DNA of 64,000 nucleotides. It comes from Candidatus Pacearchaeota archaeon (GTDB lineage Archaea; Nanobdellota; Nanobdellia; Pacearchaeales; GW2011-AR1). The stretch is taken from contig JBAZOZ010000002.1 of the NCBI GenBank assembly GCA_041648455.1, positions 1,531 to 65,530 on the forward strand. Direction: 5' to 3'. Every line of letters starts with the position of its first letter. The first letter of the stretch is position 1. Both the position numbers and the translations under genes were made by a program. The notes under the pieces are model-generated. The model was not told the DNA's origin and did no database searches. It saw nothing but the letters and a program-made list of their open reading frames with translations. Positions 1,318 to 62,496 of this stretch are shown here, piece by piece.

Positions 1318-1821
1318 TTATCTCTTTCCTTCTAAATCTAAATAAGCCTTTGCTTGGCCGAGAAATTCGTCGCAGCCGCCAATTATTTTGTCTTCCATCT
1401 GATCTACTCTGCTTGGAATGACCCATTTTTCATAAATACTTCTTAAAAATTTGTTGAACGCGTTTGTTTCGAATTTTCCTTTGTAATCTCTCGTCAGAGT
1501 TCCCTTGATTGAAATTTCTACTGAACCCTTGTTGGTGTTTACTTTTTTTCCACCCTCGGTTATTTCAACTTTTGTCAATCCGAGAATTTTGAAAGTTATC
1601 TTTGCATCAAACTTAAAATAATCTGTGATTTTTCTGAATCCAGTCCACATAATATCAATATTTTTCGAATCTCCTAGAATTTTTTCAACATATTTATCTT
1701 CATTCATTAAAAGAAGTGTCTCTTCAGTAAGCCAGTCATAACAGAATTTGTAAAAATCCGCGAAGTTAAAAACTCCATTATATTTTACCTTGCTTGAAAA
1801 TACTATGTCTTTTTCAGCCAT
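1318..1821 (-). CDS. Hypothetical protein (168 aa); start taken at MAEKD
   Basis: ORF 1318..1863 in track. The first 14 codons lie inside the conserved hairpin element, so ATG at 1821 (MAEKDIVF) is preferred. Confidence 0.45.
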   Translation of the reverse strand: MAEKDIVFSSKVKYNGVFNFADFYKFCYDWLTEETLLLMNEDKYVEKILGDSKNIDIMWTGFRKITDYFKFDAKITFKILGLTKVEITEGGKKVNTNKGSVEISIKGTLTRDYKGKFETNAFNKFLRSIYEKWVIPSRVDQMEDKIIGGCDEFLGQAKAYLDLEGKR

Positions 1822-2090
1822 TAAAAGAAACCCGCTGGTTTCTTTTGAACTTCCTCGAAACACTGAACGGTGGTATCTCTCTTTGCCTCCGAGGATACCA
1901 CGAAAAAGAAACTAAATTTATTTTGAATCTCCTCGAAATGCTGAACGGTGGTATCTCTCTTTGCCTCCGAGGATACCACGAAAAAGAAACTAAATTTATT
2001 TTGAATCTCCTCGAAATGCTGAACGGTGGCATCTTTATTAGCCTCCGAGGATACCACGAAAAAGAAACCATTGGTAAAATACCTCTGGTG
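1822..2090 (+). repeat. Conserved hairpin (AAAAGAAACCCGCTGGTTTCTTTT, 1822..1848) followed by three tandem copies of a 78-nt unit (period starts at 1853, 1931, 2009)
   Basis: Direct read: cctcgaaa(c/t)(a/g)ctgaacggtggtatctctctttgcctccgaggataccacgaaaaagaaactaaatttattttgaatct occurs three times, the third copy degenerate. 78 is a multiple of 3, so three ORF-track entries (1794..2102, 1814..2071, 1821..2138) are repeat artefacts. Confidence 0.85.
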
Positions 2091-2183
2091 AAAATCGTGT
2101 AAAAGAAACCCGTTATTTAATTCAATTAAATTTATCATTTTCCCCGTTTATATAATAAAAAAAGATTGTTTAAATATTTATTG

Positions 2184-5681: not shown

Positions 5682-5990
5682 TTATAAATATTCTATTAAT
5701 TTATATATTTCATAACCAGCTCCTACGATACCGATAAGTAATGATAAACAACCTGTTGTTGCTTTACTATTTTTATTAACATTTGAAACGCAACTACAAT
5801 GGTCTTCACAATTACAGGTGTCCGCACATCTACAAACAATACAATCCTTATACTTATCATCGCTATTACACGGTGAAAATGTCTTATCCGAATTTAAATT
5901 TCTCTCTTTATTAAATTCATAAATTCCATTGATTTCTTGCTTTCCTAAAACTTCTCCATTCAAATCTTCTAATCTAAATTTATCTGTCAT
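5682..5990 (-). CDS. Cys-rich RiPP precursor-like peptide C (102 aa from MTDKF). Conserved leader plus a Cys-rich core (10 Cys) plus a C-terminal hydrophobic tail
   Basis: MTDKFRLEDLNGEVLGKQEINGIYEFNKERNLNSDKTFSPC...CIVCRCADTCNCEDHCSCV...TTGCLSLLIGIVGAGYEIYKLIEYL. The track ORF starts at a TTG at 6008; ATG at 5990 is preferred. Confidence 0.7.
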   Translation of the reverse strand: MTDKFRLEDLNGEVLGKQEINGIYEFNKERNLNSDKTFSPCNSDDKYKDCIVCRCADTCNCEDHCSCVSNVNKNSKATTGCLSLLIGIVGAGYEIYKLIEYL

Positions 5991-6004
5991 TTTATTTCTC
6001 GTTA

Positions 6005-6298
6005 TCAATATCTTATTAATTTATATATTTCATAACCAGCTCCTACGATTCCGCCAAGCAATAACAAACAACCAGTCGGTGATTTATGGTTTTGACTTTT
6101 ATTAACTCCATGATCTTCACAAACACAAGTATCTGCGCATCTACAAACAATCGGACAAGGGTTTTCATTTCTAGTACACGGCGAAAATGTCCTATCATCA
6201 TTTAATTCTCGTCGATTTTTAAACTGATAAACCCCATTAATTTCTTGTTCTCCTAAAACTCCTTCTTCTACATCTTCAAGTCTAAATTTGTTTTCCAT
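6005..6298 (-). CDS. Cys-rich RiPP precursor-like peptide B (97 aa). Same leader, a Cys-rich core (7 Cys) and a C-terminal hydrophobic tail
   Basis: MENKFRLEDVEEGVLGEQEINGVYQFKNRRELNDDRTFSPC...CPIVCRCADTCVCEDHG...TGCLLLLGGIVGAGYEIYKLIRY. Confidence 0.7.
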   Translation of the reverse strand: MENKFRLEDVEEGVLGEQEINGVYQFKNRRELNDDRTFSPCTRNENPCPIVCRCADTCVCEDHGVNKSQNHKSPTGCLLLLGGIVGAGYEIYKLIRY

Positions 6299-6315
6299 TT
6301 ATTTACGAATGGGTT

Positions 6316-6519
6316 TTAAATCGTTGCGCAGCCACAATGCTCTGAACAATAAGGTGAACAAACGTTAGGACAAGTTTTACCAGCACACTCACACATACCG
6401 GTACAGAATGTCCTATCTGAAACTAAGTTTCTTGTCGTTTTAAAATCATAAATTCCATTAATTTCTTGCTCTTCTTCAAATTCTTCACCAATATTATCTA
6501 ATCTAAATTTGTTTCCCAT
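6316..6519 (-). CDS. Cys-rich RiPP precursor-like peptide A (67 aa). Same leader and a 10-Cys core; no tail
   Basis: MGNKFRLDNIGEEFEEEQEINGIYDFKTTRNLVSDRTFCTGMCECAGKTCPNVCSPYCSEHCGCATI. Its start overlaps the maturase stop by 17 nt. Confidence 0.7.
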   Translation of the reverse strand: MGNKFRLDNIGEEFEEEQEINGIYDFKTTRNLVSDRTFCTGMCECAGKTCPNVCSPYCSEHCGCATI

Positions 6520-7876
6520 TTTGACCCCCTTTCAATTTTTGTTTTATTTCGTGAAATAAAATCCCCTGATTTATTGAACATCTTGAATTATTAATTGTGT
6601 CTTCTAAACTTCTTGATTGAGCATAGCCCTTCGCAAGACAATCACCACCACAATTATATTTCGCAAAACAATCTCTACAATTAGGAATATTTTCAACAAC
6701 TCTTCCTTGCAATCTTTTTATTTTTGTATCATCAAACTCAAATTGATTTTTATCAGGATTGTATTGCCCAACAATGAATATTTCAGCCATATCATCATCT
6801 TTTCTAGAGACCTCTAAGCACGTTGTAACTCTCCCTTCAGGAGATACAAGGAAGTTTTTCCCAGCAGCACCGCAAAAAGAATTATGGATTCCTTCTAATT
6901 TAGCTCCAGAATAATAAATCCCGACCTCTAATTTTTCAGCAGTTTGTTTAGCCTCAAGAAGATATTTTAGATAATCTTCTGGAGATGGTGCTCTTGCTTT
7001 TGTTGTTTTGCATCTTCCGCATTCAAACAAAGGCTCTAAATGAAAACTTTTATTTGAAGAAATTGAGTGAAAAAATTCTAAAATCTCAGACATTCTTGGT
7101 ACACTCTCTGCAGTAATTGTTGCCCTTATTCCATAAGGATATTTTTCTTCTTCTAATATTTTTATTGTCTCAACAACATAATCAGAAGAAGGCATAAACC
7201 GGTGGTTTGGTCCTGCCATTGGTCTCTGTGCATCTTGAATGTCTGCAGTACCGTCGAGAGAAATGTTTAATCTGTCAATATTTTTTAAAATCCATTCCAA
7301 ATCTCTATGATTTAAATTATTAAAAACACCGTTTGTTGCGCTTGAAACTCTTCCTTTCAAATTATTTTTTTCTGTCTGCTTATTAAAATATTCCACAGAT
7401 CTTTTTAAGAAATCTATATTTCCTCTTAAAAGAGGTTCTCCTCCCCCATGAAATCCAAGATGAATATCTTTGTTTCCGACTTTTAAACTATTTTTGACTA
7501 CTAAATCAATTGCAGATTTTGCAACATCAAATTCCATAATCTGTCCAACTCTTTCACCACCATGTGAATAACAATAAACACATCTGAGATTACAATTATA
7601 AGTTGGCATAAGTGTAATACTCGTAGGCTCATATTCAGAACCTTCTTTTTTTATATTGCAACTAGATTGAGATTCAACTAAAATTTTAGTCTTGATTAAT
7701 TGTTCTTTTATTTCTGGTTGTAAAGAAGATTCTTCTCCTTTTTTTATTTTTTTCAAAGCACCCACAACTCCCGAGCTCACAGAAACAACAGAACCCTCTA
7801 AAGGAACATAAAGAATAAATTTGTCTTCATCTGGGATAACAAAAAGCTCGTTATTGATTTCCATCTTATTTAACAC
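6503..7876 (-). CDS. Radical SAM / SPASM-domain peptide-modifying enzyme (anSME/sactisynthase-like) with N-terminal RRE/PqqD-like region
   Basis: CNLRCVYC (CX3CX2C) and GGGEPLL. The C-terminal SPASM pattern is FCGAAG...TTC...CRDCFAKYNCGGDC. The first 95 aa (FVIPDEDKFILYVPLEGSVVSV) resemble a peptide-binding RRE. Confidence 0.85.
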   Translation of the reverse strand: MLNKMEINNELFVIPDEDKFILYVPLEGSVVSVSSGVVGALKKIKKGEESSLQPEIKEQLIKTKILVESQSSCNIKKEGSEYEPTSITLMPTYNCNLRCVYCYSHGGERVGQIMEFDVAKSAIDLVVKNSLKVGNKDIHLGFHGGGEPLLRGNIDFLKRSVEYFNKQTEKNNLKGRVSSATNGVFNNLNHRDLEWILKNIDRLNISLDGTADIQDAQRPMAGPNHRFMPSSDYVVETIKILEEEKYPYGIRATITAESVPRMSEILEFFHSISSNKSFHLEPLFECGRCKTTKARAPSPEDYLKYLLEAKQTAEKLEVGIYYSGAKLEGIHNSFCGAAGKNFLVSPEGRVTTCLEVSRKDDDMAEIFIVGQYNPDKNQFEFDDTKIKRLQGRVVENIPNCRDCFAKYNCGGDCLAKGYAQSRSLEDTINNSRCSINQGILFHEIKQKLKGGQNGKQI

Positions 7877-10331: not shown

Positions 10332-10501
10332 TGCGCGATACGAGAATCGAACTCGTGTCTCAACGTTTTTGCTTTCTCGCGATTTCCGTCGGAGGCAATT
10401 TAAGAAATCGCCTTACAGCGTCGAAAAAGGAAGGTGTGTGAGAGGAAACCATAGGTTTCCTTCATTGGCAACGTTACGTTCTACCACTAAACCAATCGCG
10501 C
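10332..10501 (-). tRNA. tRNA-Gly(GCC) with a 98-nt intron at canonical position 37/38 (intron 10367..10464)
   Basis: Minus-strand read GCGCGAT-TG-GTTT-AGTGGTA-GAAC-G-TAACG-TTGCCA[intron]A-CGTTG-AGAC-ACGAG-TTCGATT-CTCGT-ATCGCGC-A. Acceptor 7/7, anticodon stem 5/5 (one G-U), T-stem perfect. The intron holds an 8-bp hairpin GCGATTTC..GAAATCGC. Confidence 0.6.
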
Positions 10502-14356: not shown

Positions 14357-14427
14357 TTGGCTTCAGAGAAAAGTTCTGAATATAAAATGAAAAAAACAAG
14401 AAATTTTTTACCTCTTAAACACAGGAT

Positions 14428-14823
14428 GTGTTCAAGATGAGAAGACAAAGAAATTTGATTGTTGGTAAGGAAGAAGCCATTCCGGTTGGAGCGGTTTTTC
14501 AAAGAAGTAAATATTATTTTATCGTCGGGAATTCTGATGAGAATGGAATGATTAATTATTGTTCTATTGATAGATTTGCTTTTGCATCTGAAAGATTAAA
14601 ATATAATGATGGAATAGAACACCTCACAATTCAAGAAAGCCCGTTTTATTTTTCAAGGCAGCACATCAATTGGATTAGAAATTATCTTAATAATAACGAA
14701 GCCAAAAATCTTAGCAAAATAGAAATAGATAATCTTAAGCAAGATTTAGATGTTGCAGCCAGAGATGGATTAAAAAAGGATGTTAAGAAGTTGATTGAAA
14801 TTTGTTCTGAGAAGAAGATTTAA
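14428..14823 (+). CDS. Hypothetical protein (131 aa)
   Basis: ORF track only. Confidence 0.35.
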   Translation: MFKMRRQRNLIVGKEEAIPVGAVFQRSKYYFIVGNSDENGMINYCSIDRFAFASERLKYNDGIEHLTIQESPFYFSRQHINWIRNYLNNNEAKNLSKIEIDNLKQDLDVAARDGLKKDVKKLIEICSEKKI

Positions 14824-18180: not shown

Positions 18181-18813
18181 TTTGAAAAATTCCTGTTTTT
18201 GAAAGGCAAAAAACTTCTTGTTTTTTTCATTTTCTTTTTATTAACATCATTTCAACAATGACAGAAAATATTAGTGCTCCTATTGAGAGATTAATATCCA
18301 CTGCGTTGAAACATGCGGTTTTTAATGTTCTTATTCCTATGAGGAATATCACTGCAAAGTCAATTAGCAAAGGCAGTATTCTTAACATCCTAAATTATTC
18401 CAAATGCCCTCGCTAATAAAACCACAATGATTATTATTCCTATTATCCATAATATCTTATCTAAATTTCTTTGCAACCAATTAGTCTTCTTCACCATCTT
18501 TTATAATTTTGTTATGTCAATATAGTTTTTAAATTTGTTTATTTTAATCGTGCTTGTAAACTCGCAGATTCTCTTTCCCACCCAACCCGCGCCTGTGATT
18601 TGTTATTATCTTTAAATTTGTCAAATCACAAATGCTCTGCTCCCATTTCGAATTTATTATTTAATTTAAAGACGGTAAATTCAAAATGTTCGCCAACCCA
18701 GATAACGTCAACAAATGTTTTATCATTATTATCTAAATACATTAATTAGTTAAACAAATTATCTCAAGAGTTTTTATGTGATCTTCTTTTCTTCAAATTC
18801 AAAAACCAAAATC

Positions 18814-20586
18814 TTATTCCATTCTATTTCCGCTTAATCTGCTTCCTTGCTGTCCAGGTGTTTGACCGCCGAGTTCCGACGGCAATTGTGAAAAACCTGC
18901 ACCGAAAATATTATAATTTCCTTGAGGCAACATTGTTCCATAACCCGAAAAATATCCTTGTTGAAATCCGGTTGATTGATTCCAATATGGAGCCATTTTC
19001 ATTGAATAAATTGGAGAACCGAAAGCTTCTAGAGATTCCTGAACTGGCGGAGATTTAAAATGCTGCCACCAACTTGCTGCTTCTATAACTTTTTTCGCTT
19101 CAAAACCTTCCTTGCCTAATTTTTCCATCATTTCTTTTATCGGAACATTTCCCATACCCATCGGCAATTCAGTATGTTCAAATCCAAAATTATCAGAAAG
19201 ATGAATATGTTTCAGAAGCGGTTTTATTTTTTCTGTTTCTTCAACAATATCTTTTGATTCGTAACCGTATTTTCTCATCATATTTATATGGCCGACATCC
19301 CAAGTTACTCCGATTAATTTTTCTGCCTGACTTTTTGCTTCGCTTTCCGAAAGACCTTTTTCTCTTCCTATTTTAACAAATTCATCTCTTGCTTTCTCTA
19401 CGATTTCTTTAAGTTCATGTCCCCTTGAAAAAGCTCCGCCAGCAGGAGGATTTTCAATTGCGATTATCGGTGCTGCTTTCCACTTTCCTTCTCTAACTTT
19501 TTCATAAGAATCCCAAGCAACATTCGCAAAAGTCTTTATTGTTTTTTCTTTTGCAAATTCATCGAGGGGTTTATAAATTTCTGGAATTGAAATCCTATTA
19601 TTTAAAGTTTCTAATCCACTTGCAAGAATTTCTTTGGTTAATTCTACTCTTCTCAAACTATCTTGAGGTAATTCATTGATTTTAGTTACCTTAGATTCTA
19701 TTTCTTTTTTAAGTGCATCTAATTTTGGTTTATCTTCGTGTGTTGCATTATTGTATGCTAAATTATAAAGTTCTTTTAATTCCCTGTAAGAATCATTTAA
19801 AAATGCTGTTCCAATATTATAATTTGAAAGAGCTTTTTTTTCTTCTGGCAATAATTCTTTTCCTGCTTCTTTTTCTGCTTTTGCTCCTAATCTAAGATAT
19901 TTTGTTGACTCAATAAATTCTCCTGCCCTTTCAGTATTGTAGGCCAAGTGTGATAGTGAAGAACGCCAAGTTTGTTCATTTTGCTTCTTAATTTCATTTT
20001 TTATTTCTTTGGATTCTTCTCCCGGGAAATTTCTTTCTTTTAAGGAAATTCTATTGATTGAACCTGTTTCTGGATTTATCATCAATCCTTCTTCAACTTC
20101 TCCTCTCTTGGGTTTTATTTGTCCGGGAAGAATTGCAGAAGAATGAAATACAATTGGAGAATTTCCGTCTGGATTTATTTCATGTGCTCTCTCTACGGCA
20201 AATTTCATTTGCCTTTCTGCTGCCTGTCTGCCCGTTTCACTCCACCCTTCTTTTGTAAAACCGGAAGCCTCAATCAGAGGACCGTGAACAGTTACATCGA
20301 CGCCAGTTAGTTTTGAAAGCCTGTTAATTTCTTTCAAATGTTGTTGAGGAATAGATTCAAAAACTTCGGGACTAACTCCTTCCAACTCAATATGTTTTAC
20401 TCCGGTTGATAATTTAGAAGACATTTCTTGAAGCCAGTTCGCATTTCTTGGGTCTGTTGTTAATGCAAATTGTCCTGCGGGGATATGAGTTCCAACGAAA
20501 CCATATCCATAACCTTTTTCAGGGTCGAGAGAAGAATATCCTCCCTGATATAAATCGCTTGTTTTATACTCTTTTTTTTCTACCAC
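18814..20586 (-). CDS. Xylose-isomerase-like TIM-barrel (sugar-phosphate isomerase/epimerase family) protein with large insertion and Q/G/Y-rich low-complexity C-terminal tail
   Basis: IELEGVSPEVFE near the N-terminus and VTWDVGHINMM...HIHLSDN near the C-terminus. Tail YWNQSTGFQQGYFSGYGTMLPQGNYNIFGAGFSQLP. Confidence 0.45.
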   Translation of the reverse strand: MVEKKEYKTSDLYQGGYSSLDPEKGYGYGFVGTHIPAGQFALTTDPRNANWLQEMSSKLSTGVKHIELEGVSPEVFESIPQQHLKEINRLSKLTGVDVTVHGPLIEASGFTKEGWSETGRQAAERQMKFAVERAHEINPDGNSPIVFHSSAILPGQIKPKRGEVEEGLMINPETGSINRISLKERNFPGEESKEIKNEIKKQNEQTWRSSLSHLAYNTERAGEFIESTKYLRLGAKAEKEAGKELLPEEKKALSNYNIGTAFLNDSYRELKELYNLAYNNATHEDKPKLDALKKEIESKVTKINELPQDSLRRVELTKEILASGLETLNNRISIPEIYKPLDEFAKEKTIKTFANVAWDSYEKVREGKWKAAPIIAIENPPAGGAFSRGHELKEIVEKARDEFVKIGREKGLSESEAKSQAEKLIGVTWDVGHINMMRKYGYESKDIVEETEKIKPLLKHIHLSDNFGFEHTELPMGMGNVPIKEMMEKLGKEGFEAKKVIEAASWWQHFKSPPVQESLEAFGSPIYSMKMAPYWNQSTGFQQGYFSGYGTMLPQGNYNIFGAGFSQLPSELGGQTPGQQGSRLSGNRME

Positions 20587-20648
20587 TTTGAATTTTTCCT
20601 AAATTTAAAGGACAGAAAATTTTCTTAAATTTTCTGTATGTTTATATT

Positions 20649-24029: not shown

Positions 24030-24323
24030 TCACTCTTGACTCTTGCAACAATGACATGCACACTTCAGATTAGTTATAAATCCTAAATCAGTTTCTCCGG
24101 CTAAACAGGAAGTTGTTTTAAAATCCTGTGCTGTTCTTACAACGCCACCGATGCCAATACAATCCGCCTCGGAATTTATATTCTGACTATCATTAAAATC
24201 TGGAATATTGTTTTCGGATGGAGAAGACTTGATAAAGAAAAAATAAGCGATAAAAATTGCAGAAACAACCAATATTGCAATAATAACAAAGATGGTGATT
24301 TGGCTTTTTTTGACTTTTTTCAT
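24030..24323 (-). CDS. Small secreted Cys-rich protein (N-terminal TM/signal, 7 Cys)
   Basis: QITIFVIIAILVVSAIFIAYFFF then ...CIGIGG...CLAG...CACHCC. Confidence 0.45.
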   Translation of the reverse strand: MKKVKKSQITIFVIIAILVVSAIFIAYFFFIKSSPSENNIPDFNDSQNINSEADCIGIGGVVRTAQDFKTTSCLAGETDLGFITNLKCACHCCKSQE

Positions 24324-24452
24324 ATATGTTTTAATATCTTCAAGTTTTTAAATCTAATGCAGAAAACAAATTTTGTTTTCTGCCTCACAAACTTTTAAAG
24401 AAAATGAAAAGTTCGTGATGGTAACTTTTATTAACTAATTTATTTTTATTGT

Positions 24453-24709
24453 TTGATGAATATGAAAATACAAAAATTTCTAATTTTTGTCCTTCAAAAA
24501 CAAGAAGTTTTAGAAGAAATAGGAAATTTTTTACCTTTTACAGAAATTAGAAATTTCTGTCCTACGGAAAATAGGAAAAACAAAAAAGTTTTTCATCTCT
24601 CCAAATCAAGAAGATTTGAAGATAAGAAATTTTCCGTCCCGTTCAAAACGGGAGATTTTGAAGGTTACAAAACAGGAAGTTTTGAAAGTAAAAATAGGAA
24701 ATTTGAAAA
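24453..24709 (+). repeat. AGGAA-core module array upstream of the GluRS-like gene; the first 80 nt are a conserved block shared with 39489.. and 62373..
   Basis: atgaaaatacaaaaatttctaatttttgtccttcaaaaacaagaagttttagaagaaataggaaattttttacctttta...aacaggaagttttgaaagtaaaaataggaaatttgaaaaATG. Confidence 0.8.
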
Positions 24710-25906
24710 ATGAAAAATCTCGATAAAAAAATTCGTGCTTACGCTTTGAAGAATGCAATTGCTTATGAAGGAAAGGCACGACAGGGTGCGGTTATTTCTG
24801 GATTGTTTGCTGAGGGTTTGAAGAAAGAAGATGTGAAGAAAATTATTAAAGATGTCTCAAAAATTGTTAATGAAGTAAACAAACTTTCTCTGGAAGAACA
24901 GGAAAAAGAATTTGAAAAATTAAAAAAAGAGACTCACGAAAGAGAGCATAGAGAAGGTTTGGAAGAATTGCCGAATGCAAATAAGGGAGTTGTTATGAGA
25001 TTCAGGCCATCTCCTTCCGGACCATTACATATTGGGCACATAATTTCAAATATAGTTAATTCTCTTTACGTTAAAAAATATGGCGGAAAATTTTATGTAA
25101 TTATCGACGATACAAACCCAGAAAATGTTTTGAAGGATTCTTATAAAAAAATCAAGGAAGATTGCGACTGGGTTTTTGGAAATGTCACAAAATATCTTAA
25201 TTCTTCGGATAGAATGGTATTGTATTACAGGTATGCAGAAGATTTAATTAATAAAAAATTTGCTTATGTCTGCACTTGTTCTGCTGAAAGATTTAGAAAG
25301 TTTTCTGAATTTCAAGAAGATTGTCCGTGCAGAAATAATGAACTGAAAGAAAATATTTATAGATGGAAAAAGATGTTTGATGAATATAAAGAAGGCGAAG
25401 CAGTTTTGAGATTTAAAACTCAAGAAGGAATGAAACATCCAAATCCTGCGATGCGAGATTTTCCTCTTGCAAGAATAAATCTGACAGAGCATCCCTTGCA
25501 AAAGAAAAAATATCGAGTTTGGCCGTTGATGAATCTTGCCGTCGCTGTCGATGATATTGAATTGAAGACCACGCATATTATTAGAGGAAAGGACCACAGA
25601 GATAATGCAGAGAGGCAGAAAATGATTTTTGAAGTTTTTGGAAAGAAATATCCGTGGAGTTTTTTTATGGGAAGAATAAAATTTAAAGATTTAGTTTTGT
25701 CAAAGAGAAAGATTACGCAGGCAATCGAATCAGGTGAGTTTTCTGGAGTCGAGGATGAAAGACTTCCAACTATTGCATCTTTAAGAAAAAGAAAATACAA
25801 TATGAAAGTTTTCGAGAGATTTGCAGAACAGAGAGGACTTACAGAAGTGGACAAAGTTGTTGATTCAAAAGAATTTTTCTTGATTTTGGATAGTTTTAAC
25901 AAGTAA
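24710..25906 (+). CDS. gltX: Archaeal/eukaryal-type GluRS-like catalytic domain with N-terminal GatB/YqeY-like helical domain; canonical C-terminal anticodon-binding domain absent (398 aa)
   Basis: RFRPSPSGPLHIGH (HIGH motif) and VLSKRK (KMSKS variant); only about 65 aa follow the KMSKS. The N-terminal 90 aa (IRAYALKNAIAYEGKARQGAVISGLFAEG) are YqeY-like. Confidence 0.7.
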   Translation: MKNLDKKIRAYALKNAIAYEGKARQGAVISGLFAEGLKKEDVKKIIKDVSKIVNEVNKLSLEEQEKEFEKLKKETHEREHREGLEELPNANKGVVMRFRPSPSGPLHIGHIISNIVNSLYVKKYGGKFYVIIDDTNPENVLKDSYKKIKEDCDWVFGNVTKYLNSSDRMVLYYRYAEDLINKKFAYVCTCSAERFRKFSEFQEDCPCRNNELKENIYRWKKMFDEYKEGEAVLRFKTQEGMKHPNPAMRDFPLARINLTEHPLQKKKYRVWPLMNLAVAVDDIELKTTHIIRGKDHRDNAERQKMIFEVFGKKYPWSFFMGRIKFKDLVLSKRKITQAIESGEFSGVEDERLPTIASLRKRKYNMKVFERFAEQRGLTEVDKVVDSKEFFLILDSFNK

Positions 25907-29094: not shown

Positions 29095-29305
29095 CTTTCA
29101 GTCGTGAGTCGAATAAAAAAGGAGAAACAAAGATGAAAAAAATAAAATATTCAATTGCAAAATCTGGGCTGTGCCTTTGCACAGACGGAATTAAAGATTT
29201 TGCAAATATAGAAAATACAGAAATCGAAGATTTCTGTCCTTACAAAACAGGAAGTTTTGAAAGTAGGAAATTTTCTATCTCATTAAAATTCAGGAGAATT
29301 TTAAG

Positions 29306-29707
29306 ATGAAAATCTTATTTGTCTGCAAGCACAACAGATTTAGAAGCAAGGTAGCTGAAGCATATTTCAATAAAATAAATAAAAACAAGAATATTAAAGT
29401 AGCAAGTGCCGGAATTTTCAAGGGGTTTCCAACTGAACCCATCGTCGTTAAAATTGGAAAAAGATACGGATTAAATATAAACAAAAATACAAATGGGTTA
29501 AAAGAAGAAGCAGTTAAAAAGATTGATTTATTGATAATTGTAGCGAATGACGTTCCTGCATATTTATTTAAAAGCAAAGTAAAGAATATCCTTGTCTGGA
29601 AAATTCGTGATGCAAATTCCCTCGATAAAAAAGAAATTGAAAAGATTATGAAAAAAATATTTAAGAAGATTGATGAATTAAATAGAAAAATAGGGAAACT
29701 AAAATGA
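29306..29707 (+). CDS. Low-molecular-weight protein tyrosine phosphatase / ArsC-like
   Basis: ILFVCKHNRFRS (CX5R P-loop) at the N-terminus. Confidence 0.75.
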   Translation: MKILFVCKHNRFRSKVAEAYFNKINKNKNIKVASAGIFKGFPTEPIVVKIGKRYGLNINKNTNGLKEEAVKKIDLLIIVANDVPAYLFKSKVKNILVWKIRDANSLDKKEIEKIMKKIFKKIDELNRKIGKLK

Positions 29708-36838: not shown

Positions 36839-37027
36839 TTAACGAGTTTTGATTGCAAACTCGCCCTTGCTTTTTAATTTTAATTTCTGCGCGATTTCGG
36901 ATTTTTCTGGATCTAAAATAATTACTCTTCCTTTGAATCCTTCTGTTGATTCACGAGATTCACATTTAGGACATTTTTCTAATTCATGTATTGTACTGCA
37001 AATTTTGCATGCTTTTTGTTTTGCCAT
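36839..37027 (-). CDS. spt4: Transcription elongation factor Spt4 / RNAP subunit E''
   Basis: MAKQKACKICSTIHELEKCPKCES...GRVIILDPEKSEIAQKL. Confidence 0.8.
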   Translation of the reverse strand: MAKQKACKICSTIHELEKCPKCESRESTEGFKGRVIILDPEKSEIAQKLKLKSKGEFAIKTR

Positions 37028-37215
37028 TAAAAGAACCCCGCTGGTTTCCTCAGAAATTGAAAATTTCTGGGACATTCAAAATTTGCATTTTGAAGTTTTT
37101 GAACTTCCTCAAATTGTGGAACGGCGATATGAAAAACTTTATTGTTTTTCATCCTTCCGAAACAAGAAGTTTCGAAAGTTTTCAGAAATGCCTCCGACGA
37201 AAATTGCATAAGAAA
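37028..37215 (+). repeat. Second locus of the hairpin-plus-78-nt-unit element family, abutting the spt4 start codon
   Basis: ttaaaagaaccccgctggtttcc...tgaacttcctcaaattgtggaacggcgatatg...gcctccgacgaaaattgcataagaaaca parallels 1822..1940. Confidence 0.65.
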
Positions 37216-37235
37216 CAATTTATTTAATTTAATTA

Positions 37236-37850
37236 TCATTTTTTCTTTACCTTTTTTTCTTTTCCTTTAACTGCTTTCTCCTCGAATTTTGCGGCTTTAA
37301 CAGCTTCTTTTTGTTTTTTTATTGCATCTTCTTTAGTCCATTCTAATTTTCCAAGTCCGGGCTGGCGCATTGTCAATCCTATTTTTGGCTCGTCTCCCTT
37401 GTAACTTATTGCAACAACTCTTGCCAAACAAGTATCTCCTGATTTTAAAATTCTTTTTGAAGTTTTCCCAGTTAGCGTATTTGACTTGCTGAAAGTCACA
37501 TAATCATCCATTGTTTGAGAAATATGAATCATTCCCTGCATAACCCCCATATTTACAAAAGCTCCGAAATTAGTTATTTCTGAAATTGTTCCGTAAACTA
37601 GTTCTTGAAGTTCTGGCTTCCACGCAAGTAGTTTGAATGTTGATTTGTAATAAGTTGCACCGTCTCCCGGAATTATCACTCCCTCTCCGACGCTTAAAAC
37701 TTCAATTACTGCGACGGCTTTTCCGATTTCTCTATCATAATAATTTTTGTAAGTTTCGTGCAGCTGGTTTTCAACAGCCTCACCAGTTGGCATACCAAAT
37801 AGTTTCGGTTCAACTCTTACATAATCTTCAACTTCTGTTACATAGAACAT
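37236..37850 (-). CDS. rpoE: DNA-directed RNA polymerase subunit E' (Rpo7) with S1 domain
   Basis: MFYVTEVEDYVRVEPKLFG, then an S1 domain and a basic tail. Confidence 0.75.
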   Translation of the reverse strand: MFYVTEVEDYVRVEPKLFGMPTGEAVENQLHETYKNYYDREIGKAVAVIEVLSVGEGVIIPGDGATYYKSTFKLLAWKPELQELVYGTISEITNFGAFVNMGVMQGMIHISQTMDDYVTFSKSNTLTGKTSKRILKSGDTCLARVVAISYKGDEPKIGLTMRQPGLGKLEWTKEDAIKKQKEAVKAAKFEEKAVKGKEKKVKKK

Positions 37851-37972
37851 AAAAAAAGTAGTGAAAAATGGCTTAAAAACCTTTTTGTTAAAGATTTTTG
37901 GGCCACGAAATTTAGAATTGCGCCTACACACAAAAGTGAAACAAAAATTTCGTCGGTTTTTAAAATTTCCGA

Positions 37973-38941: not shown

Positions 38942-39487
38942 ATGGATATAATCTTAGTTAGACATGGTGAATCTGAACATAATGCTAAATTAAGTGAAGA
39001 TAATGATTCTGCTTTGACTAAAAAAGGGAGAAAACAGGCAGAATATGTAGGTAAAAAATTGCAAAAAATAAAGATATCTAAAATTTACACAAGCGGATTA
39101 ATAAGAGCTAAACAGACGGCGCAAATTATCTCCAAAATTAATAAAATATCTAAGATAAAATATTTTGATGGATTAAATGAATATCCTGGAAGATATTTGA
39201 AGCAAAAATGGAGATGGTTATTTAATAAAAGATTAAAATTATTAAAAAAATTAATAAAAGATATTTCTAAAGACAAAAAAAAAGATAAGACAATATTAAT
39301 TGTTGCTCATGGAATTACTAATAGAATTATAATAGGTTATCTTTTACAGATTCCTCTGAAAAAACAGCTCCTATTTTTCAGACAACACAATACAGGTGTT
39401 AATATTTTGATATGGGATAATGATTTTAAAAACTGGAAGCTGGAATCTATGAATGATATTTCACATTTGCCGGAGAGGTTAAGATGA
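38942..39487 (+). CDS. Histidine phosphatase (phosphoglycerate-mutase-like) family protein
   Basis: ILVRHGESEHN, ...R...T and VAHG motifs. Confidence 0.75.
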   Translation: MDIILVRHGESEHNAKLSEDNDSALTKKGRKQAEYVGKKLQKIKISKIYTSGLIRAKQTAQIISKINKISKIKYFDGLNEYPGRYLKQKWRWLFNKRLKLLKKLIKDISKDKKKDKTILIVAHGITNRIIIGYLLQIPLKKQLLFFRQHNTGVNILIWDNDFKNWKLESMNDISHLPERLR

Positions 39488-39632
39488 AAATACAAAAATT
39501 AAAAATTTTTGTCCTTCAAGATGGAAAACAAAAAAGTTTTCCATCCCTAAAAATCAGGAAGATTTTAAGGAAACAAGAATTTTTAGAAGAAATAAGAAAT
39601 TTTTTACCTTTTAAAAACAGGAAATTTTTAAA
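39488..39632 (+). repeat. AGGAA-core module array upstream of 39633
   Basis: atgaaaatacaaaaattaaaaatttttgtccttcaaga...aatcaggaagattttaagg...aaataagaaattttttaccttttaaaaacaggaaatttttaaaATG. Confidence 0.8.
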
Positions 39633-40316
39633 ATGAACAAAGCAATAATTTTCGACTCGGGAACTTTGATTAGTTTATCAATGAGTGGTTTACTTGATAG
39701 TATTCGTGATTTAAAAAGAATATTCAATGGACATTTTTTAATTACAAAAGATGTCAAAGAAGAAATTATTGACAAACCACTTACAATAAAAAAATTTGAA
39801 CTTGAAGCTTTGAGAATTAAACAGCTTCTTGACGACGGCGTATTGGAGAGTTCAGATGTAATGAAAATCAGCAAAGAAGAAATTGATGCCGAAAAAAATA
39901 AATTTATAAATATTGCAAACGCAACTTTTTACGCAAGGGGGAAAGAAATTCATATAATTGATTTTGGTGAAGCGTCCTGTTTGGCTCTTAGCAAAATTCT
40001 AAGTGAAAAGAAAATTGAAAATGTTATTGCTGTCGATGAAAGAACTACAAGACTTCTTGGGGAAAAACCAGACAACATAAAAAAGATTATGGGGAATAAA
40101 TTACATACAAATATAAATTCCAATAAGGAAAACTACAAATTATTTCAGGGGTTTAAATTTATTAGATCGACCGAATTAATTTATGTTGCATATAAAAAAG
40201 GTTTTATTAACATAAAAGATGGTACAACTGTTCTTGACGCATTGCTTTATGCTTTAATGTTCAGCGGATGTTCTATTTCTTCTACAGAAATTAATGATAT
40301 AAAAAAAATGAAGTAA
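39633..40316 (+). CDS. Hypothetical protein, possibly PIN-like nuclease fold
   Basis: AIIFDSGTLISL...VDERTTRLL; weak. Confidence 0.4.
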   Translation: MNKAIIFDSGTLISLSMSGLLDSIRDLKRIFNGHFLITKDVKEEIIDKPLTIKKFELEALRIKQLLDDGVLESSDVMKISKEEIDAEKNKFINIANATFYARGKEIHIIDFGEASCLALSKILSEKKIENVIAVDERTTRLLGEKPDNIKKIMGNKLHTNINSNKENYKLFQGFKFIRSTELIYVAYKKGFINIKDGTTVLDALLYALMFSGCSISSTEINDIKKMK

Positions 40317-40632: not shown

Positions 40633-40703
40633 GGGTCTGTAGTTCATCGTTAGAATATCTGCCTCCAGAGCAGAAGAGGGGGGTTAAATTCCCTCCAGGC
40701 CCA
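40633..40703 (+). tRNA. Putative tRNA-Trp(CCA) with non-canonical D-loop (no GG) and T-loop (TTAAATT)
   Basis: GGGTCTG-TA-GTTC-ATCGTTA-GAAT-A-TCTGC-CTCCAGA-GCAGA-AGAG-GGGGG-TTAAATT-CCCTC-CAGGCCC-A. All four stems pair with G-U allowed. Missing G18G19 and C56 lowers confidence. Confidence 0.35.
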
Positions 40704-40830
40704 TTAAAAAGAACCCGCTGGTTCTTTTTAGAAATCTCCTCTAATGCTGAACGACGATTTCTAAATGCCTCCGGTGAAATCGTATAAAAGAACCCAAATA
40801 TTTTTCCTCTGGTAGAATCGCATAAAAGAT
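40704..40830 (+). repeat. Third, degenerate locus of the hairpin-plus-78-nt-unit element, abutting the tRNA 3' end
   Basis: ttaaaaagaacccgctggttctttttagaaatctcctctaatgctgaacgacgatttctaaatgcctccggtgaaatcg. Confidence 0.6.
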
Positions 40831-41110: not shown

Positions 41111-41330
41111 GGGGCTGTGCTTTCGCACAGACTGAGTTTAATATTTTGTTATTACAGAAAATATGAAAAATAAAAAGTTTTTCATCCTGTTCACATGGAA
41201 AACAAAGAAGTTTTCCATTCCTCAAAATCAGAAAGATTTTAAGGAAACAGGAAGTTTTGAAGGTAAAAAAATTTTCTGTCCCTTAAATTTCAAGGGGATA
41301 ATATGAAATTAAAGGTGAAAGGAGGGTGAA
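41111..41330 (+). repeat. Hairpin GGGGCTGTGCTTTCGCACAGAC followed by AGGAA-core module array upstream of 41331
   Basis: Same hairpin-plus-array architecture as 29166..29305. Confidence 0.7.
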
Positions 41331-45402: not shown

Positions 45403-46845
45403 ATGAGTATAGGGAAAAAAGTTAGTGATAAGATTAATACAGAAAATAGGAAATTTTCTGCCTCTAAAACTTCTAAGGGAAAACAAGAAGTTCGTGAAAA
45501 AGAAAAAACACTCAAGATTTCAATTAAAGAGGCCAGTGCTGCTTCTGTTATGACTGGTGCAGGAGATGCGTATGTTGTTCCTTATGCTCTTGCCTTAAAT
45601 GCGAATAATGCTCAAATAGGATATTTAACAAGTCTTGCGGGTTTGATCGGGCCGAGTTCACAAATTATTGGAAGTAGATTTATGTATAAATATTCTAGAA
45701 AGAGATTGGTAATTAGTTCTGTTTTTTTACATGCCCTTATGTGGGTGGTTTTTTTGTTATTGGGACTGTTATACTGGCAAGGATTTTTAGAAGGAGAAAA
45801 TGTTGCAATGATTTTTATTATATTATATTGTGCATATGCTCTTTTTGGTTCTCTCGGAGGACCTGCATGGTTTTCATTAATGGGAGATTTAGTTGACGCG
45901 AAAGAAAGAGGAAGATATTTTGGAAAAAGAAATAGAATTGCAGGAATAGTTAATATTTCTGTAACGCTTGTCGCTGCCTTTATTCTAGATTATACAAAAA
46001 ATTATAATTTGGTTATATTCGGATTTATAATAATATTTAGTTTTGCGGCAATTGGGAGGTTTGTTTCTTGTTATCTTTTGACAAAACATTATTATCCTAA
46101 AATGAATATGAAAAGGGAAGATTATTTTTCTTTTTGGGAATTTATAAAAAAGGCTCCGAAAAACAATTTTGGCAAATTTGTTATTTTTGTCAGCCTTGTA
46201 ACGCTTGGAACAAATTTTGCCGCTCCTTTTTTTGGAGTTTATATGTTAGAAGAACTGCATTATAGTTATACTTGGTTTACAATAGTTACATTGTCTGGGG
46301 GAGTGTTCACACTTCTTAGCATGCCGTTTTGGGGAAAAATTGGAGATAAATATGGAAACAGACAACTTATGAAAATAGGGATGTTTATGATTCCGGTCCT
46401 GCCTCTGCCTTGGATTATCTTTAAAAGTCCTGTTGCTTTAATTCTTACAGCCCAGTTGTTATCTGGACTTGGTTGGGCTGCGTTTAACTTGGGGTTATCA
46501 AATTATATTTACGACGCTGTTACTCCGGGAAGAAGAGGTTTTTGTGTTGCATATTTTAATGTAATTAATGGTGTTGGTGTTTTTATCGGTGCAATTTTAG
46601 GCGGATTATTTGCTCAATATATTCATATTTCATTCATAAATACTTTTTTCCTAATCTTCTTAATCTCAGCTATACTTAGGGTTTTGCCGGGATTTATTTT
46701 ATTTCCAAAGATTAAGGAAGTTCGAGCGACTTCAAATAAAAAAGAAAATGTCTTGACTTCGATTTTATCTCCAGCAAGGCCATTGATTGATATGTTTCGT
46801 GGAGTAGTTTCAGTATTTAATTTTAAAATTTCAAAGAAAAAATAA
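45403..46845 (+). CDS. MFS transporter (12 TM)
   Basis: Hydrophobic profile and MFS signature GKIGDKYGNRQ. The first 40 codons are encoded by an AGGAA array, so the true start may be downstream near 45550. Confidence 0.7.
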   Translation: MSIGKKVSDKINTENRKFSASKTSKGKQEVREKEKTLKISIKEASAASVMTGAGDAYVVPYALALNANNAQIGYLTSLAGLIGPSSQIIGSRFMYKYSRKRLVISSVFLHALMWVVFLLLGLLYWQGFLEGENVAMIFIILYCAYALFGSLGGPAWFSLMGDLVDAKERGRYFGKRNRIAGIVNISVTLVAAFILDYTKNYNLVIFGFIIIFSFAAIGRFVSCYLLTKHYYPKMNMKREDYFSFWEFIKKAPKNNFGKFVIFVSLVTLGTNFAAPFFGVYMLEELHYSYTWFTIVTLSGGVFTLLSMPFWGKIGDKYGNRQLMKIGMFMIPVLPLPWIIFKSPVALILTAQLLSGLGWAAFNLGLSNYIYDAVTPGRRGFCVAYFNVINGVGVFIGAILGGLFAQYIHISFINTFFLIFLISAILRVLPGFILFPKIKEVRATSNKKENVLTSILSPARPLIDMFRGVVSVFNFKISKKK

Positions 46846-51556: not shown

Positions 51557-52222
51557 ATGAAAAAAATAGGAAATTTTTTACCCCATTCAAATCAAGAAAA
51601 TTTGAAGGTGAAGAAAATTGAACTTTCAAAATTAGAATATCCCTATGATAGTCTGGAGTCATACATCGACGAGAAAACAATGGAAATTCATCACGACAAA
51701 CATCATCAAACTTATGTTGATAAATTCAATGCACTAATCGAAGCGAATAAAGAATTAGAAGGAAGAACACCCAAAGAGATAATTATGGATATTGAAGATG
51801 TTGACGAGAAAATAAGAACTGCTGTAAGAAATCATGGTGGCGGAGTTATTAATCATAATTTTCTCTGGAAAATCTTGAAAAAGAATACAGAACCTAAGGG
51901 AAATATTCTTAAGGAAATAGAAAAAGAATTTGGAAATATTGATAAATTTAAAGAAGAATTTAAAAAATCTGCCATGAGTTTATTTGGAAGTGGCTGGACT
52001 TGGCTAGTTCTTGACGACGGCAAATTAAATATCATTAACACATCAAATCAGGATTCTCCATTAAGTATGGGAATGATTCCATTATTAACAATTGATTTGT
52101 GGGAACATGCATATTATTTGAAATATCAAAATAGAAGAGCAGATTATATTGATAATTTTTTTCATGTGATTAATTGGGAGAAAGTAAATGAAATATTCTT
52201 GGAGGAAAATGTGAATGGATAA
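51557..52222 (+). CDS. sod: Fe/Mn superoxide dismutase
   Basis: HHDKHHQTYV and DLWEHAYY motifs. The first 20 codons lie in an AGGAA array, so the true start may be GTG at 51617. Confidence 0.85.
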   Translation: MKKIGNFLPHSNQENLKVKKIELSKLEYPYDSLESYIDEKTMEIHHDKHHQTYVDKFNALIEANKELEGRTPKEIIMDIEDVDEKIRTAVRNHGGGVINHNFLWKILKKNTEPKGNILKEIEKEFGNIDKFKEEFKKSAMSLFGSGWTWLVLDDGKLNIINTSNQDSPLSMGMIPLLTIDLWEHAYYLKYQNRRADYIDNFFHVINWEKVNEIFLEENVNG

Positions 52223-56644: not shown

Positions 56645-56914
56645 AATATTTATTTTTTTGATTTTTTATTTTTCATAATTAGTAAAGAAATTGCTTAAAA
56701 ATTCACAATCCCACCGTTCGCTGATGCTCACTTCGGAGCAAGCTCGGGAGTATTTGTGAATTTTTTGCTTTGCACCAGCAATTTCAGTCTCCAGGAAAAA
56801 ATAGATATTTTTTCAGGGCCATTCAAAATCATAGATTTTGAAGGTTCCAAATCTGGCACAGCAAGCTGTGGGGTATTGACCCAGATTTAGAAACAAAGAA
56901 AATGCAAATATAGA

Positions 56915-57121
56915 AAACAAAATAGTTTTCTATCCCTAAAAATTGAGAAAGTCTTAAGGAAACAGGAAATTTTTAAGATGAAAAAAATAACAAATTTTTT
57001 ACCTTTTCAAATCAGGAAAAATTTAAGATGCGGAAAACAGGAATTTTCCGTCTCGTTAAAAACAGGAAATTTTTAAGATGAAAAAAATAACAAATTTTTT
57101 ACCTTTTCAAATCAGGAAAAT
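56915..57121 (+). repeat. AGGAA-core module array containing a 101-nt direct duplication (56957..57017 and 57058..57118), upstream of 57122
   Basis: aaacaggaaatttttaagatgaaaaaaataacaaattttttaccttttcaaatcaggaaaa occurs twice. Confidence 0.8.
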
Positions 57122-57574
57122 TTGAAAATGAACAAAAAAATAACGATTATAATATTAGTAATTTTATTAACTGTGTTTGTTGGAGCATATTTAATAAAAC
57201 AAAAAGATCCAAGAATCCCCATTACTATTTATAAAACCCAAAGTTGCGGATGTTGCGAAGGTTTTATATCTGAATTAACTAAAGGTGGATTTGATGTTAA
57301 AATGAATGTTGAGGATAATATAGATATAAAAGGAAAATATAACATTCCAGAAGAAATGCGAAGTTGTCATACTTCTTTTGTTAAGGGTTATTTTGTAGAA
57401 GGACATGTTCCTCTTGAAGCTATAAATAAATTAATTGAAGAATCTCCTGAAATTGATGGGATTGCATTACCTGGAATGCCTTCTGGTTCTTTGGGAATGC
57501 CAGGAATAAAAGATGGACGACTTAAAATATATTCTATCACCAATGGAACAGCTTCTATTTTTATGGAAATATGA
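57122..57574 (+). CDS. CopG/DUF411-like metal-binding protein (membrane anchored)
   Basis: N-terminal TM; CGCCEGF and CH motifs. Confidence 0.55.
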   Translation: MKMNKKITIIILVILLTVFVGAYLIKQKDPRIPITIYKTQSCGCCEGFISELTKGGFDVKMNVEDNIDIKGKYNIPEEMRSCHTSFVKGYFVEGHVPLEAINKLIEESPEIDGIALPGMPSGSLGMPGIKDGRLKIYSITNGTASIFMEI

Positions 57575-57712
57575 AAGAATTTCCTACTTTCAACATGGAA
57601 AATAAGAGATTTTCCATGCCATTCAAAACAAAAAGTTTTGAAGGAAACAGGAAGTTTTCAAAATGTGAAAAACTTCCTATTTTTCACCTTTTAAATTCAG
57701 GAAGAATTCAAA

Positions 57713-59224: not shown

Positions 59225-59271
59225 AGAAAACAGGAAGTTTTCTAATTCTCCATTTTTGGAGAATATAAAAA

Positions 59272-60354: not shown

Positions 60355-60614
60355 TTACACCAAACCTTTTATAATAACTATTGATTAAGTTGATTAATGA
60401 AAAGAAGGTATTCGTTCCCCTCAAATGAGACAAAGATTAATGAGAGACAAAGTAATTCAGAATATTGAACGAAAATTAAATTTATCGTAAATAAACAAAG
60501 AAGGAGAAAGTTAAATGAAAAAAATAGAAATTTTTTACCTCTCAAACTTAGGAAAAGTTCAAGATACAGAAAATAGGAAATTTTCTGTCTCATTAAGAAT
60601 AGGAAATTTTTAAG

Positions 60615-62368: not shown

Positions 62369-62496
62369 AAATACAAAAATTTCTAATTTTTGTCCTTCAA
62401 AAACAAGAAGTTTTAGAAGAAATAAGAAATTTTTTGTCTTTTACAAATAGGAAATTTGAAAAATAAAAATGGAAAAATTGAAAGGAGGTAAACAAC

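Follow-up and report, generated by a model that had tools for sequence, protein, structure and literature searches.

The stretch analysed here, 64,000 nucleotides of contig JBAZOZ010000002.1 from a Candidatus Pacearchaeota archaeon (assembly GCA_041648455.1; the contig is also present in the ENA assembly ERZ27249422) and below called the window, carries a family of short hairpin repeats that are joined into arrays directly upstream of genes. According to Pfam scans of its open reading frames (ORFs), the window codes for a thermosome, Rpo7, ribosomal protein L10e, a diphthamide synthase and a class-I GluRS, genes that identify it as archaeal; its overall G+C content is 31%. The array at the centre of this study (24456-24713, plus strand) consists of about nine hairpins and is spanned by a mini-ORF of 85 codons, which begins with the ATG at 24456 and ends with the TGA at 24711-24713, so that its stop overlaps the GluRS start at 24710 as ATGA. 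The ORF over this array is identical to the hypothetical protein WC584_00635 of a Candidatus Pacearchaeota metagenome-assembled genome. At ordinary genes of the host genome, the TATA box TTTAAATA begins at -29 to -27 from the ATG, and the host thus relies mainly on leaderless mRNAs. Canonical Shine-Dalgarno sequences GAAAGGAGG also occur in the genome.

A previous inspection of the letters alone, here called the sequence-only reading, had described AT-rich tandem units of about 20 nt. The units are indeed recurrent, but they are not plain words. They are short hairpins with covarying stems, in which an AGGAA or AAGAA core lies between complementary AT-rich arms (AAAAC/GTTTT, AAAAT/ATTTT, AAATC/GATTT, AATTC/GAATT), and two hairpin types alternate and pair up into a bipartite module of 48-51 nt. 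The module is read in the order H1 (ACGGAAAAT-loop-ATTTTCCGT), CC, and H2 (TTCAAAAC-A[G/A]GAA-GTTTTGAA). H1 follows the pattern A-Y-R-G/A-AAAA-Y, a variable loop and a complementary arm, and its loop is found in both orientations (TTCTA and TAGAA). The linker between the two hairpins is CC(Y), and H2 reads (Y)TTCAAAAY, the loop A(G/A)GAA, and RTTTTGAA(GG), frequently with an A.A or C.A mismatch and with outer C-G pairs. The AT-rich stems open with ACAG, ACGG, ATGG or ATGA, the G+C content of the units is about 25-30%, and the modules are joined head to tail into mosaic arrays.

For detection, a covariance model (R1) was seeded with eight modules of equal geometry, because a MAFFT alignment of 19 modules fell out of structural register. 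With both strands searched and filters off, R1 has 26 matches at E<1e-3 in the window, every one of them in array regions. The relatives used for comparison are groundwater metagenome contigs that carry the repeat family (numbered L002, L011, L013, L023, L028 and so on), in which arrays were located by BLAST and R1; a k-mer expansion was dropped, since it drifted into low-complexity sequence. R1 has 68 matches in 23 such related loci, compared to one marginal match in 11 unrelated control loci that had been picked up only through a chance 20-mer. The repeats are far above chance by other measures as well. On both strands of the window, AGGAA with a perfect stem of at least 5 bp occurs 25 times, against about 2 expected from shuffles, and TRF and a separate repeat search each arrive independently at these families, the periods being about 25 and 50 nt. 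Every one of the 13 arrays of the sequence-only reading was found, 11 of them with strong R1 matches, one (45425-45500) with a single partial match of 25.9 bits and one (59225-59271) with a single AGGAA hairpin (E=0.002). The list was incomplete, however, since it lacked 14387-14440 (+), 20586-20640 (-), 56790-56844 (+) and an orphan array at 37049-37178. The family appears to be new: in Rfam 15 only tRNAs reach the gathering threshold across the whole window, with nothing significant in 24300-24760, the literature search found no described Pacearchaeota or archaeal family of such repeats, and a 22-mer scan of GTDB representative genomes gave one chance match only, in a Lachnospiraceae genome.

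The stems are maintained by double substitutions. In the 68-match R1 alignment, 92% of stem cells are paired, compared to 76% in shuffles and 38-59% with slid partners. Changes on both sides are seen in 17 of the 19 stem pairs, and there are 214 compensatory cells where 70 are expected, a number reached in none of 500 shuffles. This alignment was fitted to R1, but the slid controls agree with it, as does a model-independent count of the flanks of A[AG]GAA, whose first six flanking positions pair in 57-82% of 171 distinct array units and in 21-31% of 976 occurrences elsewhere in the window. One-sided stem changes are rare (11 cells versus 214 double changes). Pairs of the G.U type make up about 1% and are no commoner than A.C (14 G.U versus 54 A.C overall, and about 11 versus 9 once loop-closing and systematic mismatch positions are removed). 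As the stems are strictly Watson-Crick, selection at the RNA level and at the DNA level is indistinguishable. Predicted RNA folding goes beyond shuffles for two arrays (z = -3.5 and -4.3); for a third array, z is -1.1.

In the window, 24 of 26 R1 modules lie on the strand of the immediately downstream gene, and the modules are likewise co-oriented in the relatives. The earlier statement that the arrays are always in gene orientation therefore holds for these 24 modules, and fails for two at 37049-37178, which are antisense to rpo7/spt4, and for an inverted unit at 57665-57687. Pooled over the window and the relatives, 38 genes are preceded by an array. In 30 of these genes the xGGA core ends exactly 10 nt ahead of the start codon, as it does in only 2 of 63 control genes, and the 3' arm of the terminal hairpin abuts the ATG or takes in its A. 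An ATG-initiated upstream ORF ends between -5 and +17 nt from the start in 29 of the 38 genes, about 24 of these 29 ORFs cover most of the array, and in 19 of the 38 genes the stop is the TGA of an ATGA. At its other end, the mini-ORF has an ATG that touches or overlaps the upstream gene's stop (39484, 57571, 62365, L037, L023), or else lies behind a canonical TATA box at leaderless distance (1274 on the minus strand, L025, L033).

The lengths of the modules are in keeping with this architecture. The modules are of 51 nt (31), 48 nt (17), 50 nt (14) or 49 nt (9). Modules that are self-contained from ATG to stop account for 10 of 23 in the 49/50-nt class, but for only 3 of 48 in the 48/51-nt class. 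Chaining of ATGA overlaps calls for a unit of 3n+2, and keeping the frame for a unit of 3n. Among 18 distinct indels of at least 45 nt between arrays, which are non-independent events, 15 have a length divisible by 3, and ten measure precisely 51 nt. The focal array itself holds one 51-nt insertion of two hairpins relative to four homologous arrays. All three reading frames are used for one and the same nucleotide unit across arrays, and even within one array (KTGSF, NRKF, KQEV); openness of the frame is conserved, but the peptide is not.

Between the window and the relatives (61-86% protein identity), orthologous junctions differ in whether an array is present. At the TTGA stop/start overlap that corresponds to window position 52736, L028 carries a clean insertion of 50 nt; the insertion regenerates a 17-codon mini-ORF that starts with TTG, together with a new ATGA, and is flanked by TGAA on both sides. 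The window has a module before the AP-endonuclease-like gene at 20586, where L002 has a 9-nt spacer, and in the reverse case a module is found in L002 where the window has a canonical TATA box and a leaderless start. In L028, arrays stand before a 156-aa gene and between SOD (superoxide dismutase) and the next gene; the corresponding junctions of the window consist of 6 nt or an overlap. In L023, the ribosomal-protein genes S14, L6, L19e and L18 and SecY have arrays between them. Sequences also recur at unrelated genes: the terminal hairpin of the 14387 module is found in L040 at the end of an array of about 175 nt before an unrelated ORF, and a composite of about 95 nt is common to the upstream region of GluRS and to unrelated genes in L013 and L037, the likeness stopping at the ATGA. 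The suggestion that the arrays are copies of larger elements with a mobile-like spread is supported, both by this composite and by the presence/absence differences. An 80-nt block said to open three arrays is shared by two, with 81 nt at 96% between 24462-24542 and 62365-62445; the array at 39484 has only the first 39 nt in common and then a 51-nt insertion.

The arrays of the window differ in length and in the details of their junctions. The focal array has R1 matches at 24469-24516 and 24617-24664. On the minus strand, the two-module array at 1170-1275 contains a 34-codon mini-ORF with its ATG at 1274 and a canonical TTTAAATA at -27; its stop overlaps the ATG at 1173 of a signal-peptide gene that leaves the window. 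Also on this strand are single modules at 18181-18236, with a 17-codon mini-ORF and an ATGA overlap with a nucleotidyltransferase gene (start 18180), and at 20586-20640, directly before the GTG start (20586) of a 590-aa AP_endonuc_2 protein. The remaining arrays are on the plus strand. A single 50-nt module at 14387-14440 carries a 17-codon mini-ORF (MKKTRNFLPLKHRMCSR) with an ATGA overlap with the gene at 14437. At 39484-39636 lies a 50-codon mini-ORF, of which the ATG overlaps the His_Phos_1 stop and the TGA overlaps the ATG at 39633. The longest array (56790-57127) has five to six modules, including two identical 50-nt copies, and tandem mini-ORFs (MKKITNFLPFQIRKI), the last of which stops 2 nt ahead of the ATG at 57128 of a DUF411 gene. 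An intercistronic array follows (57571-57726), with a mini-ORF ATG that overlaps the DUF411 gene stop; this array contains the inverted unit mentioned above, and its terminal hairpin ends at the ATG at 57713 of a cupredoxin/Fer4 protein. The two modules at 60515-60614 form a 32-codon mini-ORF with its own AAGGAG upstream and a stop 1 nt before the ATG at 60615 of a thioredoxin-like protein. The two degenerate modules at 37049-37096 and 37128-37178 (plus strand, in the region 37027-37239), which are antisense to the rpo7/spt4-like operon, are the exception.

According to the sequence-only reading, each array ends 0-10 nt before an ATG, but two do not end at the gene start. The array at 41136-41305 follows a GC-rich hairpin and has a 47-codon ORF that ends at 41305; a spacer of about 40 nt with GGAGG separates it from the gene start at 41331. 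In the array at 62365-62466 (listed earlier from 62367), a 33-codon mini-ORF begins with an ATG that overlaps the upstream stop; behind the array come a spacer of about 30 nt with a GGAGG Shine-Dalgarno sequence and a 51-codon membrane ORF at 62497. At 29195-29309, the array lies 3' of tRNA-His and of a GC-rich hairpin, and has an open frame that ends in ATGA at 29306 (operon of an LMWPc phosphatase and HisRS), with no plausible ATG of its own. The GC-rich hairpin, GGGCTGTGC(C)TTT(C)GCACAGAC, is present at 29166-29186 and 41111-41132, as the sequence-only reading had it; it stands 3' of a tRNA (His, Trp) and just 5' of an array, with a related copy in L036, and may act as a terminator or processing site, or mark the boundary of an element. 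The weak member at 59225-59271, before the DHODH (dihydroorotate dehydrogenase) gene at 59272, combines one AGGAA hairpin with a gene-specific hairpin at 59245-59264. The latter, ATTCTCCA-TTTT-TGGAGAAT on the plus strand before the DHODH-type gene (MDNK...), is kept in relatives with covarying stems (L028 at about 2076-2100, L036, L016).

Two members lie within annotated coding regions. A partial module at 45437-45490 (25.9 bits) is in frame in the N-terminal coding region of an MFS transporter (ATG 45403). The module at 51557-51608 (72 bits) is complete, exactly 51 nt long, stop-free, in frame with SOD and provided with its own ATG. The Pfam domain of SOD begins at residue 22, and the GTG at 51608 is a possible ancestral start; an N-terminal extension of the protein appears as likely as initiation at this GTG.

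The repeats are best read as a new family inside messenger RNAs, and not as a promoter. We consider it probable that they form a lineage-specific hairpin repeat family of Pacearchaeota, variable in copy number and similar in its organisation to the interspersed repetitive units of mycobacteria (MIRUs), which is tolerated through translational coupling. From the sequences we infer not only transcription, translation and re-initiation but also the origin of new copies. An array would be transcribed together with its gene, and would lie within a transcription unit, in the stretch from the transcription start to the first gene or in an intercistronic position. A ribosome would begin translation at the 5' ATG of the array, either where this ATG forms a leaderless 5' end or after re-initiating at the upstream stop, would read through the weak hairpins, and would terminate where a stop overlaps or adjoins the downstream start (ATGA). 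There it would re-initiate, and the AGGA in the last loop, 10 nt upstream, may serve as a weak Shine-Dalgarno sequence. Since downstream expression would be kept in this way, insertions and tandem expansions would be tolerated only in such a position, orientation and phase. In archaea, coupling by termination and re-initiation needs overlaps or very short gaps (PMC6728339, PMC10666635), and the junctions between arrays and genes are of the ATGA/TGATG type shown in these studies to couple translation, although the studies concern ordinary gene pairs and not bridging ORFs encoded by repeats.

The closest parallel is with MIRUs, which insert at start codons and contain an internal ORF that is coupled to the gene with -4 spacing, so that the effect on expression is minimised (PMC12548453, PMC3184786; the description goes back to Supply et al. 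1997, as summarised in these two papers). MIRU units are 40-100 bp long, often tandem and variable in number, as are the array modules (PMC12548453, PMC3184786). Like the modules, of which 24 of 26 are co-oriented, they lie in operon intergenic regions in the direction of the genes. The ends of the MIRU ORF overlap the flanking stop and start (-4), which compares with the ATGA 3' junction in 19 of 38 cases and with the 5' overlaps at 39484, 57571 and 62365. Filled and empty sites exist between relatives for MIRUs, and here one clean 50-nt filled/empty pair and several further presence/absence sites are seen. The tolerance of MIRUs has been explained by coupling that preserves expression. The differences are also clear. 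The host of the MIRU family is Mycobacterium, whereas the host here is an archaeon of an AT-rich DPANN lineage. There is no sequence similarity, MIRUs being GC-rich (PMC3184786) and the present units about 25-30% GC. The Pacearchaeota unit consists of two short covarying hairpins with a conserved AGGAA loop, it has two length phases (3n internal, 3n+2 self-contained), and many of its copies are at leaderless 5' ends. Finally, a tetranucleotide direct repeat is seen here only once (TGAA in L028).

Several observations weigh against the account by tolerance and coupling. When units are permuted, an open frame survives in 9-34% of trials if the array is one of the longer ones, and short arrays give 0 or 100%; the arrays tested were chosen for having ORFs. 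Continuity of the ORF is thus enriched, but is no proof alone. About one third of the arrays are without a complete bridging ORF: the array at 29195 has no ATG, the one at 56908 has a broken series, and those at 41136 and 62367 end before a gene led by a Shine-Dalgarno sequence. The antisense strands of arrays are sometimes stop-free too, and hence compatibility with an ORF alone cannot account for the strict orientation. The conserved loop and the exact AGGA-N10-ATG spacing hint at a function beyond mere tolerance. The scarcity of G.U pairs gives no positive sign of selection at the RNA level. Orphan arrays without a co-oriented gene occur in L002, L011 and L015 and at 37049-37178 of the window. 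As to mobility, direct repeats at array ends are no longer in cognate than in non-cognate pairs (p=0.24; start of array versus gene start), Pfam scans of 40 window ORFs found no transposase, and there are no terminal inverted repeats, the 5' end (ATGAAAA...) and the 3' end (...TTTAAAATG) of the arrays not being inverted copies.

Two alternatives seem to us unlikely, though worth keeping in mind. In the first, the repeats are a portable module for translation initiation or RNA regulation that serves the host, the mini-ORFs being secondary; H2 would present AGGA as a Shine-Dalgarno mimic or protein-binding site, and the arrays would act as standby, titration or attenuator sites. The conserved purine loop A(G/A)GAA, the exact distance of 10 nt in 30 of 38 genes, the terminal 3' arm at the A of the ATG and the strict orientation would all fit, as would the retention of arrays in highly expressed ribosomal-protein operons and the two arrays that fold more stably than shuffles; moreover, with canonical GAAAGGAGG sequences in the genome, the ribosomes can use such signals. 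However, AGGA matches the anti-Shine-Dalgarno sequence over no more than 4 nt, upstream copies are without an obvious target, the downstream genes have no common function, G.U pairs are not enriched, and one array folds no better than shuffles. That arrays come and go at orthologous genes of close relatives is also unexpected for an essential control element. Binding sites of CsrA/RsmA are multiple short hairpins with a (C)AGGA(A/U) loop, the last of which overlaps the ribosome-binding region, and the AGGAA loops with a core 10 nt before the start resemble them in motif only. CsrA, the known binder of GGA loops, is bacterial, and is not known from archaea; no candidate protein was found, and a CsrA-type domain did not turn up in the window ORFs scanned. 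The second alternative, similarly unlikely, is a self-spreading translation-coupling cassette of about 50 nt that brings its own start, open frame, stop overlapping the next ATG, and AGGA loop 10 nt upstream. Such a cassette would be neutral or beneficial for expression in an archaeon of the leaderless type; its copy number would tune downstream translation, and a hairpin-specific protein would mobilise or bind it.

We regard it as distinctly less probable that the repeats are DNA-level palindromes of the REP (repetitive extragenic palindromic), BIME (bacterial interspersed mosaic element) or MITE (miniature inverted-repeat transposable element) kind, copied through template switching or by an enzyme that recognises hairpins and acts on single-stranded DNA, with the link to start codons and frames as a by-product of purifying selection only. 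The strict Watson-Crick stems, with one-sided changes so rare and G.U no commoner than A.C, would be in line with this view, and so would the H1 loops in both orientations, the BIME-like mosaic arrays and the existence of orphan copies. REPs and BIMEs are likewise short interspersed hairpins in mosaic clusters, with structure conserved above sequence (PMC3733652). Yet REPs are GC-rich, carry a GTAG/CGTC tag, alternate in orientation at sites that are mostly 3' of genes, and have a link to a REP-associated tyrosine transposase (RAYT), none of which applies here as far as the RAYT can be judged from 40 window ORFs (PMC3733652). The present stems are not GC-rich and have no GTAG or CGTC tag, the repeats are 5' of genes in one orientation with phase-specific lengths, terminal inverted repeats are lacking, and the window ORFs that were scanned include no RAYT, IS200 or other transposase. 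Prokaryotic and archaeal MITEs are also small, non-autonomous and interspersed elements with presence/absence polymorphism (PMC10969869, PMC11602168), but the arrays are head-to-tail, without terminal inverted repeats or a parent insertion sequence, and no target-site duplication of consistent length was found. Rickettsia palindromic elements (RPEs) are palindromic repeats in frame within coding regions, as are the SOD (51557-51608) and MFS (45437-90) modules (PMC3184786). However, RPEs are single elements of 100-150 bp anywhere in ORFs, whereas the repeats here are mostly separate coupled mini-ORFs upstream (PMC3184786).

The sequence-only reading had proposed a modular promoter for leaderless transcripts or a shared regulon operator. 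Tandem archaeal promoter modules (with TFB recognition element and TATA box), or operator sites for a DNA-binding regulator, now seem very improbable. The 3' arms contain TTTTAAA-like words, the units repeat about every 25 nt, much like the distance from TATA box to start, and TTTAAA(A/T)(A/T) is present at -23 of 3 of 28 array-preceded main ATGs. But this is only a small fraction of the starts, and -23 is too close; where the genome places canonical TTTAAATA (-29 to -27), the arrays show TTGAAAGT (score 3.5). A TATA position weight matrix lent no support to a promoter within the arrays or to a general one just upstream of them (3/28 in each case). The canonical TATA boxes that do exist are upstream of arrays, preceding their first ATG (1274 on the minus strand, L025, L033). 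Many arrays are inside operons, in L023 even between ribosomal-protein genes, and a promoter would be needless there. An operator is unlikely because the half-sites covary rather than conserve their sequence, and because the downstream genes are unrelated in function (GluRS, phosphatase with HisRS, MFS, SOD, DUF411, cupredoxin protein, DHODH, thioredoxin-like protein).

Least credible is the view that the arrays are true genes for small proteins, or peptide repeats at N-termini that have their own function: gene callers do annotate arrays as hypothetical proteins, the frames are open and related "proteins" exist in other samples, but all three frames are used for the same unit, a compensatory change in a stem replaces two residues together, only K and F are conserved (from A and T runs), and there is no Pfam match. 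Integron attC sites were rejected, since an R''/R' core at the stem base is absent, arrays lie in a ribosomal-protein operon, and sites differ without change in gene content. A CRISPR array was also rejected: the units abut without spacers, and the CRISPR-DR27 match (26.6 bits) is under the 35-bit Rfam cut-off. Programmed frameshift signals (A-runs and a hairpin) were considered as well, and the evidence for them is nil.

A second, unrelated repeat family has the same layout of bridging ORFs. Three tandem 78-nt (26-codon) repeats form a 105-codon ORF at 1821-2138 (minus strand), whose TAA overlaps the next ATG as TAATG (gene 1821, minus strand). Related copies are found at 37016-37130 and 40693-40735, and the terminal hairpin of the 105-codon ORF, AAAAGAAACC-AGCG-GGTTTCTTTT, is seen again ahead of the Spt4-like start at 37027 and immediately behind tRNA-Trp. 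The spacer between rpo7 (37236-37931) and a zinc-ribbon Spt4-like ORF is filled by a 70-codon ORF at 37027-37239 (minus strand), which overlaps its neighbours as ATGA and TAATG. This 70-codon ORF ends like the 105-codon ORF (..KPAGFF) and contains two R1 modules on the opposite strand. The shared layout suggests a general pressure in the host genome to keep spacers translated, and speaks independently for the coupling model.

Some further features of the window and the relatives deserve mention. The orphan arrays of L002 (5237-5460), L011 (4325-4450) and L015 (about 2500-2600) end in a common non-repeat flank, TATCAGCGTCCTTGACTATAAT, and may belong to a larger composite element; the L002 array adjoins a Fic gene that is absent from the window. 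A nucleotidyltransferase/HepT toxin-antitoxin pair (L002, 7831-8752) lies directly upstream of GluRS, where the window (24330-24710) holds the focal array, and this junction is probably an insertion hotspot. The GluRS ORF of the window (24710-25906, plus strand) has only 398 aa, with the catalytic domain at residues 94-383 and little C-terminal anticodon-binding region, and its orthologue in L002 is similar in size (419 aa). On the minus strand (5682-7876), the gene of a 457-aa radical SAM enzyme precedes three small Cys-rich ORFs (67, 97 and 108 aa) that are paralogous and have a common leader-like N-terminus (xNKFRLE..EQEINGIY.F). The locus looks like a maturase for a ribosomally synthesized and post-translationally modified peptide with its putative tandem precursor peptides. 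At 10332-10501 (minus strand), Rfam places a tRNA that ARAGORN does not call; its span of 170 nt implies an insertion or intron of about 100 nt.

The genomes of DPANN archaea are among the smallest and most streamlined known, and yet a single repeat family fills about 3% of the window, and in a relative sits even inside a ribosomal-protein operon. The arrays are now annotated as hypothetical proteins, with doubtful N-termini as a result (SOD, MFS), and they are potential strain markers of the variable-number tandem repeat type for uncultured Pacearchaeota. If the coupling model is correct, the family would be a natural example of a repeat that invades transcription units without silencing them, as ribosomes stay engaged through stop/start overlaps, and through it the rules of re-initiation could be tested in an archaeon dominated by leaderless transcripts. 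Should the repeats even prove to be translation-coupling cassettes, they would represent the first MIRU-type system in Archaea, and a natural bicistronic-design element in a streamlined DPANN genome.

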